From: Spizellomyces punctatus DAOM BR117 | Taxonomy: Eukaryota | Assembly (NCBI GenBank): GCA_000182565.2 | Contig: KQ257451.1 | Length of the DNA: 64,000 bases | Strand: one strand, 5' to 3' | Part shown: positions 9,333-56,607 of the stretch, piece after piece | How positions within the stretch are numbered: position 1 is the stretch's first letter | Layout of the letters: the number at the start of each line of letters is the position of its first letter | Notes under the pieces: model-generated | Told to the model about the DNA's origin: nothing | Databases searched by the model: none | The model's input: only the letters and a program-made list of their open reading frames with translations | Position numbers and translations under genes: made by a program

Positions 9333-9556
9333 CCTATGTCATGGGTCCTGGCGAGGACAAGAAAACTGCATGAGCGCAAAAATGGAAATAATACAAGAGG
9401 ACTGTACAGTAGGCTGCTTGCTTGGCCCGCCTTCCAGCTCGAGTGTGCTGTGCCACATACGTGGTTTTGTTGTTATGGGAACACTCTGGGATGCAAGGTA
9501 GGGATGTCAAACGAACTCCTAGATAATCCGCTAGATCAAACTCTCCAAATAACAAA

Positions 9557-10842
9557 ATGAACGCCCCTACACATATGATGCCAGGCATGCCAGGCATGCC
9601 TCCTCCGATACCCATGCCTGGAGTAGTTCCGCCTCCCCCTCGGATCCCCAAGCTACCACCTCCAACTGAGGCGAGTTTGATGCTGATTGGTTCAGAACCC
9701 GTAGCTTGGCTTGCTGACCTTGTATTTCATCCAAAAGCCTTGCCAAACCCTGTACATTCGCAACCTTCCAGAAACTCGCGCGCTTACAGGTAGATTTATT
9801 TGATATTTTTCTTTCTGGCGCTTCGGGCTCATGTTTTCACTTTGCAGCTCTTGAGAGCGCCTTGAAAGCGCTGTTTTCACAGTTTGGCGAAGTGGTTCAT
9901 ATTCGACTTAAGCGCAACATTTCACTACGTGGACAGGCCTTTGTGACCTTTAAGGAAGTTGATTCAGCGACCAAAGCACTTAAGGAGGTGCAGGGATTTC
10001 CTTTATCAGGAAAACCAATGGTATGGGAATGAAGAGTCGCAGCGGTCCGACGTTGGTTCTAATCACAGAATGTCTGTAACACGTAGGATATTCAATATTC
10101 GAGAAACCGTTCTGACAAAGCCGCAGAGCTGGAGGGCGAGGAAGCTTTGCAAGAACACAAGCGAAAGCGAGCGGAAGAGAAAGGTAAAATTGTTTAAAAT
10201 GGACGGGAATTTGCTGACGTGTTTGCTAACTGTTGATGACAGCCAACCGACACAAGAAGCCCAAGGACGAAAAGGTGGATGCTGCTGCTGTGGCAGCTGT
10301 CTATGGTCCCGGTAAGTGATCTGCGCCGGAATGACTGGTGCAGCCGTTTTGACTCTTACCACCCCCACTTCCATACAGGATACTACTACGGAGCTGCTAT
10401 GCCCGAAGATATGGTGCCCCCCAACAGTATTCTATTTGTACAAAATCTCCCACCTGAAACGACGGAAGCAGTTCTGGCTGCCTTGTTCCAACAATTTCAA
10501 GGATTCAAAGAGGTACGATTGGTACCAGGAAAGAGTGACATTGGTAAGTTTCATTTTCCTCGCGTGGACTGTATTGGGTGTATGATTTCTTAAAGGGACT
10601 CGGATACACACACGCATAAGTTGTATATCCGAAGGGTCGGCCTGTCCATTGCACTCCGGGACGGCGGAACAGTTGTTACTGCAAACTTTCATCCACTGTT
10701 GTCATTGATTGGTGTCCTTTTCTTTTTTGTAGCCTTTGTCGAGTACGAGAGCGAAATGCAAGCAGGCGTTGCAAAGCAATCCCTCAACAAATTCAAGATC
10801 ACCCCAGAAAAGGAAATCAAGGTCACATACGCCAAAAAGTAA
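9557..10842 (+). CDS. U1 snRNP A / U2B''-family two-RRM protein (U1A-like)
   Basis: Spliced RRM1: [10 protein letters not shown]...[54 protein letters not shown]2: [12 protein letters not shown]...[55 protein letters not shown]. Confidence 0.9.
10640..10665 (+). promoter_or_regulatory. Candidate intronic U1A-binding hairpin (U1 snRNA stem-loop II mimic)
   Basis: GCC(T)GTCC-ATTGCACTCCG-GGACGGC within intron 10544-10732 of the U1A-like gene; the loop carries the U1A consensus AUUGCAC. Confidence 0.75.
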
Positions 10843-10923
10843 AATAGAAACTCGTGTGTGTTTGCTGTGCTCTGCGGTTGTTTAAGAAGGAGAGCTGATA
10901 ACAACAAAGCTGTGCAGTTCCAT

Positions 10924-11023
10924 NNNNNNNNNNNNNNNNNNNNNNNNNNNNNNNNNNNNNNNNNNNNNNNNNNNNNNNNNNNNNNNNNNNNNNNNNNNNN
11001 NNNNNNNNNNNNNNNNNNNNNNN
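10924..11023. other. Assembly gap (N run)
   Basis: 100 n just downstream of the U1A-like gene. Confidence 1.
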
Positions 11024-11481
11024 AATTGACGTCAATCCATTGCTCCAGATTTGTGGGAAAAACCATTTTTTTTATGTCCAAAAGGCTCCAAAGCTGTGCG
11101 TCGCCAAAAGGAAAAATCCGGTTTTTCCTTCCCTTGCTCCTTTTGACAGGTTGCGCTTGCTTTGCTTGCGTTGCTTGCGTTGCTGAGGGCCACGTTCAGC
11201 CTCAGCTCTCCTTCTCTTCTCATGCACCCTCATATTTAACAACTTCGCAATTCATCGGCTTTGCATTTCATCTCTGTTATCGCTCGATACGACACGTGTG
11301 TGCCGAGCGCAAAACTAGCTGGTGGCTGAATGGAACACCCATCTCGAACAATCCTTGAGCAGCACATTGCACCTCTCCCAACCGACATTAGCAGGCCCAC
11401 GTCTGCCGAAACTGCCTGTCGTCTAAAGGACCAAGCCATCTTCCGCTTGTAGGGAGGGACCATCTGACGCGCTTCAGCGTG

Positions 11482-55240: not shown

Positions 55241-56607
55241 ATGGCAACCACAACGGCTGCGTTCAAAGCTACCGATTATGACTACGTGGACGAGATTAAC
55301 CAAAATCTCTTATGTCCTATATGTTATTGTCCGTTTATTACCCCAGGTACGTGTTCAAGTTCGTGGAATTCCTGACCTTCTTTGCTCACTTGCGACACCA
55401 GTTTCGTCCCCATGTGGTCATACCTTCTGCCAAGACTGTATAACGTTTGCTCTAGCTTCAACACCCACACCATCTTGCCCCATTGACCGCACCCCCCTTT
55501 CCCTGACACAAGTGACACCCGCTGCGAAACTGATATCGAGCCTTCTCGATGAGCTGCAAGTGTTTTGCCCGAATCGCAAAGACGGGTGTACGTGGATTGG
55601 ACAGCGGCAATCCTTAAATTCGCATTTGTCTGTGCATTGTCTGTATGCACAGGTAGGATGTGAGTTGGACGGGTGTCAGGAAGGTGTCCGGCGAAGTGAG
55701 CTTGAGAGCCACATGCGGGAGTGCAGTTACCGAGCAGAGGCATGTACTCGATGTAACCGGACGATTAGAAAGAGGGATTTTGCGGTAAGCACTCTAGTAT
55801 TTATAACCTGTCCTTTCTCTTTGACGGTTGTTGACATCCGTCTATCAGGTGCATGTCAGCGAGTGTTCAGCAGGCACCGCGTCCTGCATGCACTGCAAAC
55901 GAGATATCCTTCGATCAGACTTGGCAGGGCACATAAATGATTGCCCAGAAGCAATAGTTTCTTGCACTCATGTCCGACATGGGTGCTCATGGGAGGGCCA
56001 CCGCAAATTGTTGAATGAGCAGCACCTCATCACGTGTCCCTTTGAGGCCATAAAGGGGTTCTTTAGGATCCACGATCAACGCCAGCAAGCAGTGGAAGAA
56101 GAAAATAGGGAGCTCCGTCGCCAACTTGCAGATCTACAACAGCAAGTTGAAGCGCTTCGCGAGCGTCCGCTGGTGATATCACCGCCAGAAGCTGCGATGG
56201 TACCACCCATCGTTGGCGAAACAGCGGACAGGATTGGTCAACTACTGGCTGAGACAGACCAGTTGCGCTCAGATTTGGTCAATCTGAGCGCTGGATTTTC
56301 AGCAATGGAAATGAGGCAGGACATGGCACTGCTCTGCGAAACATCTCGATTGCGGGAAGAAATGCATTCTGTGCGGGCTTTATGTCAAGCTGTACAATCG
56401 CAACTCATTAATTTTGCGTTGGATCGGCGAAAGGAGGCATCTGCCTCATCATCCACTAGCAAGTCGGTCCTTAGCTCGGCTATCAGTGCGCTCGCAGGAG
56501 GGTCATCGGAAGGGGCATCCGCGAGTAGGGGCAGTCATAGAGATGACACGGATCGGTCTCGAACCATGATATCCCAGTTTCGCCAGGATGGGAGCACGAA
56601 ACTTTGA
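55241..56607 (+). CDS. RING (C3HC4) + TRAF-type zinc fingers + coiled-coil protein, no MATH domain
   Basis: YDYVDEINQNLLCPICYCPF..PCGHTFCQDCI...CPIDR; LLDELQVFCPNRKDGCTW...HL..HC; HINDCPEAIVSCTHVRHGCSW; coiled-coil tail. Confidence 0.88.

Follow-up and report, generated by a model that had tools for sequence, protein, structure and literature searches.

A hairpin resembling stem-loop II of U1 snRNA in the last intron of a U1A/U2B''/SNF-family gene of Spizellomyces punctatus and its possible role in splicing-level autoregulation

To our knowledge, the control of U1A over its own production through the 3' untranslated region (UTR) is a textbook case that is described for vertebrates only. PIE, the vertebrate element, is found in the 3' UTR, immediately ahead of the poly(A) signal, and has two boxes in internal loops, with two protein molecules bound and poly(A) polymerase blocked. 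Vilardell and Warner reportedly found that a yeast ribosomal protein, L30 (formerly L32), binds to a mimic of its site in its own pre-mRNA and blocks splicing. According to passages of two papers, vertebrate U1A has AUUGCAC-type sites, copied from stem-loop II of U1 small nuclear RNA (snRNA), in its own pre-mRNA, and excess free protein binds to these sites and lowers the output of its own mRNA (PMC5829640, PMC9977717). In this study, a hairpin that resembles U1 stem-loop II is described in the last intron of SPPG_01120, a gene of the U1A/U2B''/SNF family, in a stretch of 64,000 nucleotides of contig KQ257451.1 of Spizellomyces punctatus DAOM BR117 (hereafter the window). Judged from the sequence of this hairpin, it is plausible that the protein regulates its own production, and this interpretation is strengthened by parallel elements in other fungi.

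No description of a stem-loop II-like element in a fungal U1A intron is found in the full-text literature (subscription journals being outside the search), in agreement with the original prediction, made from the letters of the window, that such a feedback loop is not known to be described in fungi. The available sections of a 2023 review name the 3' UTR element only (PMC9977717), and Arabidopsis U1A is reported, in an excerpt of another paper, not to bind its own mRNA (PMC5829640). U1 of baker's yeast is stated in a passage of a further paper to be without an equivalent of stem-loop II (PMC6325900). Neither U1A nor a small nuclear ribonucleoprotein (snRNP) appears in the available main text of two surveys of fungal RNA structure (PMC5640933, PMC8216456). 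One of these two surveys, according to the same partial text, discarded candidates that match Rfam snRNA families, and its supplement may list the element, because candidates of this kind were removed there.

The last intron of SPPG_01120 is 189 nt long and extends from GT to AG at 10544-10732. It is about three times as long as the norm of the gene, as the other five introns are 67, 58, 66, 59 and 67 nt long, and the unusual length noted in the original prediction is thus confirmed. The sequence TCCATTGCACTCCGG spans 10645-10659 in this intron. This 15-mer had been predicted to lie in a hairpin at 10640-10665, and the same stem is found as the minimum-free-energy fold of the 10635-10670 region, with a free energy of -12.1 kcal/mol and a share of 54% of the ensemble. 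The loop opened by the AUUGCAC heptamer consists of 10 nt in the Rfam register or 11 nt in the minimum-free-energy register, and is closed by a pair of C10647 with G10658 or G10659. Among Rfam families, only U1 (RF00003) matches the hairpin, which aligns with positions 52-88 of its model, namely stem-loop II, at 10.2 bits. The loop AUUGCACUCC, the C-G closing pair and the stem all align, and the hairpin is identical to the Rfam U1 consensus at CCAUUGCACU.CGG, in addition to the C-G closing pair. The match tested here is that to the Rfam U1 consensus; the 15-mer is presumably identical to vertebrate U1 as well. Unlike a U1 gene, the hairpin is accompanied by neither an Sm site nor a U1 5' end, and sits within an intron of an mRNA.

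The S. punctatus hairpin is similar to the vertebrate PIE in that an AUUGCAC-type site is present within the pre-mRNA of the protein itself. However, the vertebrate element has two boxes in internal loops and is located in the 3' UTR, whereas the S. punctatus element is a single terminal hairpin loop in an intron. The transcribed region 9400-10924 (the region beyond 10924 is hidden by a run of N) contains this one heptamer, and no further ATTG[CT]A[CG] is found in it besides that at 10648-10654. The expected outcome differs as well, being retention of the intron in S. punctatus and a block of polyadenylation in the case of PIE. The yeast L30 system and the reading proposed for S. punctatus both consist of a protein and a mimic of its RNA site in its own pre-mRNA, but the protein family and the RNA motif differ. 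The yeast L30 site is said to be located at the 5' splice site, as is that of the Pezizomycotina-type U1A loci described below, whereas the S. punctatus site is located mid-intron.

The spliced translation of SPPG_01120 is identical to the database protein of this strain (P0002) at 259 of 259 residues. Two stretches of this protein are matched by Pfam RRM_1, so that the protein has two RNA recognition motif (RRM) domains, joined by a linker. Its best solved relative is human U2B'', with a full-length alignment (1.6e-53, 185 bits), and the score of human U1A (1.3e-52, 182 bits) is within 3 bits of it. RRM1 (residues about 35-135) aligns with that of human U1A without gaps, and RNP2 and RNP1 are kept (YI.NL, RGQAFV.F, IQY..SD). 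Judged from these sequence features, the protein is a member of the U1A/U2B''/SNF family. The original prediction had called the gene U1A-like; its membership of the family is borne out by the two RRMs and the RNP motifs, but U1A is not favoured over U2B''. The wording U1A/U2B''/SNF family is used in place of U1A-like, because human U2B'' and human U1A score equally well; the protein may be a dedicated U1A or U2B'' or a single SNF-type protein with both functions.

Related genes were collected by scanning metagenome contigs with an exon-6 peptide alignment, and the best 80 of 347 relatives (171,642 nt) were analysed. Among these 80 loci are many intronless metatranscriptome cDNAs and several near-duplicates, and the identity does not exceed 76%. 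None of the 80 has an intron at the site of the last intron of SPPG_01120 (DI|AF). The loci contain 59 copies of ATTGCAC on the sense strand and 11 on the antisense strand, and at least one sense copy is present in 39 of the 80. When a strict hairpin is defined as ATTG[CT]AC opening a loop of 10-11 nt that is closed by at least four consecutive pairs, 38 hairpins in 34 loci are found on the sense strand and two hairpins in one locus on the antisense strand. The strict hairpin is placed just before RRM1 in 23 loci and after the stop codon in 11 loci. The closing pair is C-G in all of the 20 hairpins collected from other U1A-family genes. The counts of the other pairs in these 20 pooled hairpins are circular, because the hairpins were chosen for having stems, and only the loop and the invariant C-G closing pair are informative in this respect. 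When the window is searched with a covariance model, R1, built from the 20 hairpins of other species, the S. punctatus hairpin is the joint top match (15.6 bits, E 0.29), R1 being too short for significance over 128 kb. The hairpin that ties with it, at 55627-55655, probably occurs by chance.

The hairpins located after the stop codon are found in U1A-family transcripts of eukaryotes, in one to five copies each (Table 1). Two of the loci, L006 and L013, contain two heptamers 24-27 nt apart, which may be located in internal loops as in the vertebrate element. A vertebrate-type PIE was also considered for the related 3' UTRs and gives no Rfam match at E <= 0.01. The Rfam scan of 20 related loci gives no family at this threshold except one tRNA, and the 3' UTR hairpins are not recognised by it. 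The tRNA gene (37.4 bits) is located downstream of the U1A-family gene at L015:1663-1735.

A parallel is found in Pezizomycotina-type genes. In 20 loci, which represent 15 distinct sequences, intron 1 begins with a 5' splice site, GUAUGU or GUACGU, that forms the 5' arm of a 9-bp hairpin of the form GUAYGUGUC-AUUG(C/U)ACNNN-GACACRUAC, in which NNN is mostly UCC and otherwise CCC, AUC or UGC. A short first exon (M...A) precedes the splice site in these loci. The cells of the hairpins are paired to 97.5%, their sole variable position is compensated (C-G in six and U-A in three distinct rows), and their fold has a z of -3.8. Retention of intron 1 destroys the reading frame in the 12 loci with a plausible start placed by a script; the start is misplaced in three. 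In L076 the hairpin is located just ahead of a GUAUGU, and in L079 and L080 a 7-bp hairpin with the loop AUUGUACCUC is located in intron 1, 20 nt from its start. For the RRM1 exon of L051, the identity is 93% to an Immersiella protein and 84-90% to the other named Sordariales proteins near the top of the list (Echria, Podospora, Neurospora and Chaetomium). The splice-site hairpin is present in sequenced genomes, because it is translated (MCHCTPTHT, ATYVSLHSDT) in annotated proteins of Lasiosphaeris hirsuta, Apodospora peruviana and two Xylariales. Sordariomycetes gene models P0038, P0056, P0094 and P0102 (also P0070, P0125 and P0142) start in the intron-1 hairpin or read through it, and models that translate this hairpin are probably annotation errors caused by the element.

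The intron-1 hairpin of the Pezizomycotina-type genes looks like a splice-site-occluding autoregulatory switch. The means of blocking splicing is readable from its sequence, because the splice site is locked in a stem that the protein would stabilise. No description of this intron-1 splice-site hairpin is found in print. It shares with the S. punctatus hairpin the protein family, the loop, the C-G closing pair, the intronic location and the sense strand. However, the Pezizomycotina-type hairpin is located in the first intron and holds in its stem the 5' splice site, which would be occluded from U1 snRNP, whereas the S. punctatus hairpin is located in the last intron and holds no splice signal in its stem.

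In the mechanism that we prefer for SPPG_01120, the hairpin at 10640-10665 would serve as a decoy of U1 stem-loop II in the pre-mRNA of the protein that binds to this stem-loop. When the protein is in excess of the available snRNA, the free protein would bind to the decoy through RRM1. The bound decoy would hinder removal of the last intron directly, or would fix the RNA in a fold in which the weak branch site and the pyrimidine tract are hidden. The candidate branch site UUGAU matches CURAY less well than do CUGAC, CUAAC and CUAAU of the other introns of the gene. Unspliced RNA would yield no full protein, because TAA occurs 47 nt into the intron, and would probably be degraded; the original prediction had named an in-frame stop at 10591-10593 that truncates RRM2 upon retention, and TAA is indeed found there by reading the frame. 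The net outcome would be negative feedback at the level of splicing. We infer the route from binding to the splicing block in S. punctatus, because its hairpin is located mid-intron. That free protein binds to the decoy, blocks productive splicing of SPPG_01120 and so exerts negative feedback is, from the sequence features described here, reasonably probable.

The RNA evidence consists of one RNA-seq run, assigned by its species label, from a strongly 3'-biased, poly(A)-type library. Fifteen reads with seven start positions span the 10543-10733 junction, indicating that the last intron is real and removed. Coverage within the intron is uniformly low, with sense-strand depths of 0.79-1.37 and antisense depths of 0 across four bins, whereas the last part of exon 6 reaches 16-34 and exon 7 reaches 27-110. 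This result suggests that a few percent of the transcripts are unspliced at the last intron. As to the retention or alternative splicing for which the original prediction had proposed to examine RNA-seq, only these unspliced reads are seen, on the sense strand only, and no alternative junction reaches the listing threshold in this run, in which 15 reads cannot reveal rare forms.

The position of the last intron is shared by relatives. Over exon 6, the identity to proteins of other Spizellomycetales is 78-94%. Orthologs (P0003-P0009) are present in Fimicolochytrium jonesii, Powellomyces hirtus, Phlyctochytrium arcticum, Thoreauomyces humboldtii, Geranomyces variabilis and two Gaertneriomyces. 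P0015, an open reading frame (ORF)-type gene call, ends with ...GKSDLGT, reading into the intron at the position of the last intron, where its sequence ends. In P0154, a more distant chytrid-like protein and likewise an ORF-type gene call, an in-frame intron of 66 nt is read through at the same site and in the same phase (...TDI-GNFSLVFFQFTWFSIRLNHVFL-AFVEY...). The last-intron position is shared among chytrid-like organisms, because both of these proteins read into the intron there. The hairpin and the extra length are not general to chytrids, because the intron of P0154 is short and is without the motif. A full HMMER search gives only P0154 with read-through at the DI|AF site, and a word-indexed search of ORF-type gene calls with the reading frame of the intron plus exon 7 gives no match. 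A scan of prokaryotic genome contigs yields one animal-like contaminant, which is without the motif.

Several observations weigh against an autoregulatory role of the hairpin. The 66-nt intron of P0154 occupies the same site without ATTGCAC, which is excluded by its translation. No strict hairpin is present in 46 of the 80 loci, among them 13 fungal loci with long flanks (L004, L007-L010, L026, L029, L031, L033, L038, L039, L043 and L045; all were covered by motif and hairpin scans, and in seven the region upstream of RRM1 was also read). The R1 score of the S. punctatus hairpin corresponds to an E of only 0.29 over the window and is tied. The stability of the hairpin is ordinary as compared with shuffles of its G+C-rich sequence (z = -0.32), and the whole last intron folds no better than shuffles (z = +0.65). 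Splicing of the last intron is efficient in the single 3'-biased RNA run, which has only 15 junction reads. The hairpin is located mid-intron, with 97 nt separating it from the 5' splice site and about 40 nt separating it from the candidate branch site, and protein bound there need not block splicing. The idea in the original prediction that a U1A gene carries its own binding site is backed strongly, if indirectly, by the excess of 38 over 2 hairpins in other genes of the family and by the 20 splice-site loci, and the site in SPPG_01120 is on the sense strand and has the features of a U1A hairpin. The prediction as a whole is supported in part, the single RNA run showing efficient splicing.

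Some of these observations would also be explained by a hairpin of chance origin, or one left over from a fragment derived from U1 snRNA, that is tolerated without a regulatory role. The ordinary stability of the hairpin, the efficient splicing, the E of R1 and the short intron of P0154 without the motif are consistent with this explanation. A global alignment of Rfam U1 to 10586-10716 (501 nt being scanned) has a score of 16.8 bits, which is 6.6 bits above that of stem-loop II alone and hints at a U1-derived insert; such an origin of the insert in the last intron is possible. However, this score is far under the gathering score of 69.5, indicating that the last intron is not a U1 gene. In the global alignment, the hairpin at 10600-10632 is set at the position of stem-loop I, but any likeness to stem-loop I is unproven, as no U1 match is obtained when the Rfam scan is restricted to this 5' part of the intron. 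The numbers also argue against chance. ATTGCAC occurs six times on both strands of the window, as compared with 11.6 expected from shuffles, and at six per 128,000 positions a single strand of a 189-nt intron is expected to hold only about 0.01 copies. One exact copy of the 14-mer CCATTGCACTCCGG is present in the window, as compared with about 5e-4 expected per window by arithmetic for an exact match, and this single occurrence is on the sense strand, inside the gene of the cognate protein. The original prediction had considered the match hard to explain by chance, and the unique 14-mer bears this out, whereas the ordinary stability of the hairpin does not. No other copy of the intron is found in the window. 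A functionless copy in SPPG_01120 is unlikely, because the sense-strand excess in the family, 38 versus 2, is strong. An origin without a role is accordingly judged rather unlikely. A repeat or mobile element was considered for the last intron and rejected, as the intron occurs only once in the window and resembles none of the metagenomic loci.

The hairpin may instead be a real binding site with another outcome, either by nucleating a fold that aids splicing of the long intron by drawing its splice sites together, or by acting on 3'-end formation of the nearby terminal exon as in vertebrates. The first of these is suggested by a predicted long-range helix of 10592-10599 with 10714-10721, which is present in the minimum-free-energy and centroid folds; both hairpins would lie between its two arms, and the beginning of the pyrimidine tract would be covered. 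However, this helix is not significant (z = -1.39, 15 of 200 shuffles being as good). The vertebrate element is located close upstream of the poly(A) signal, whereas the S. punctatus hairpin is separated from every possible poly(A) site by more than 270 nt. It is nevertheless located in the last intron, about 175-180 nt upstream of the stop codon, and the vertebrate mechanism acts on polyadenylation, according to passages of two papers (PMC5829640, PMC9977717). Inhibition of splicing appears as a theme of the family, because the Pezizomycotina-type hairpin occludes the 5' splice site, and this also argues against another outcome, which we consider improbable.

The hairpin at 10600-10632 is unusually stable (z = -3.83, none of 200 shuffles being as good). 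This stability would be explained if a small RNA of its own, for instance a small nucleolar RNA (snoRNA), were encoded in the additional 125 nt of the intron and the U1-like loop were incidental, and fungal introns often host snoRNAs. However, no Rfam family reaches its gathering score in the window, relaxed scans of the intron give U1 and chance-level matches only, and no box C/D or H/ACA signature is seen when the sequence of the intron is read. The RNA depth of the intron is also flat and low, a measure in which a poly(A)-type library would miss small RNAs. A snoRNA was thus tried as a candidate and rejected, nothing being found in the Rfam scans of the window or the intron, and a separate small RNA is very improbable. 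There is at most a slim chance that stem-loops I and II of U1 are imitated together by the 130-nt insert and that a partial U1-like particle forms on the intron.

The features described above are listed in Table 1. The assembly lacks the end of the 3' UTR, because the RNA depth is still about 33 where the run of N starts. In the 3' UTR, an extra A follows position 10883 in 21 of 49 RNA reads, and loose read ends occur at 10884-10885; the extra A stems from a difference between strains, an error in the assembly or heterogeneity at this site. A further ATTGCAC is located at 11366-11372 on the + strand, outside any hairpin and within an ORF of the next region.

Table 1. Coordinates of SPPG_01120, its RNA elements and related hairpins. 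Positions are those of the window unless a locus is named.
Feature	Position	Strand	Basis or remark
SPPG_01120, U1A/U2B''/SNF-family gene, 7 exons, 259 aa	9557..10845	+	gene model, translation
SPPG_01120 coding exons	9557-9670, 9738-9789, 9848-10020, 10087-10183, 10243-10311, 10379-10543, 10733-10842	+	
Intron 1, GC donor (GCGAGT...AAG)	9671-9737	+	spliced protein identical to database model
Last intron, 189 nt, GTAAGT...TAG, phase 1; RRM2 split between ...GKSDI and AFVEY...	10544..10732	+	
TAA, first in-frame stop upon retention of the last intron; second half of RRM2 lost	10591..10593	+	frame reading
Predicted long-range helix, AAAGGGAC (10592-10599) with GUCCUUUU (10714-10721)	10592..10721	+	inference only
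Upstream hairpin, CGGAUAC.../...GUAUCCG	10600..10632	+	folding
U1 stem-loop II-like hairpin, stem GCC-U-GUCC / GGAC-GGC, C-G closing pair, loop AUUGCACUCC(G)	10640..10665	+	folding, Rfam U1
AUUGCAC heptamer, 5' side of hairpin loop	10648..10654	+	sequence search
Candidate branch site UUGAU (10705-10709) and pyrimidine tract	10705..10729	+	read from sequence
Stop codon TAA	10840-10842	+	gene model
Run of 99 N inside or just after the 3' UTR	10925..11023	.	RNA depth 33 at 10902-10920
Perfect 7-bp hairpin, loop AUUGUCUGUAU, without heptamer	55627-55655		tie in R1 search
Splice-site hairpins of intron 1 in 20 loci (L036, L040, L046, L049, L051-L053, L058-L060, L062, L066-L069, L071, L073-L075, L078)	e.g. 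L051:905-932		
3' UTR AUUGCAC hairpins, 1-5 each, C-G closed (L015, L011, L020, L024, L027, L034, L035, L037, L042, L044, L048)	L015:870-1128 (five)	sense	

A wider view is that U1A-family genes in fungi and other eukaryotes have repeatedly built stem-loop II decoys at differing sites of their transcripts, and that self-control at the level of splicing is widespread and either predates the vertebrate polyadenylation mechanism or has recurred more often. The chances of this view are about even. In Pezizomycotina, free protein and assembled U1 snRNP would compete for the same few nucleotides, so that the hairpin would act as a direct sensor of unassembled U1A. The decoy would be located in an expanded last intron in Spizellomyces, and in one to five 3' UTR hairpins in other lineages. 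The element also calls for caution in annotation, as several database proteins translate the hairpin, probably in error. Transformation is now possible in a chytrid in which the Spizellomyces version could be studied. If control via splicing through intronic decoys is true for fungi, the hairpin would provide a natural and compact splicing switch that responds to a protein, and balancing snRNP protein against snRNA would be a general need that is met by different mechanisms.

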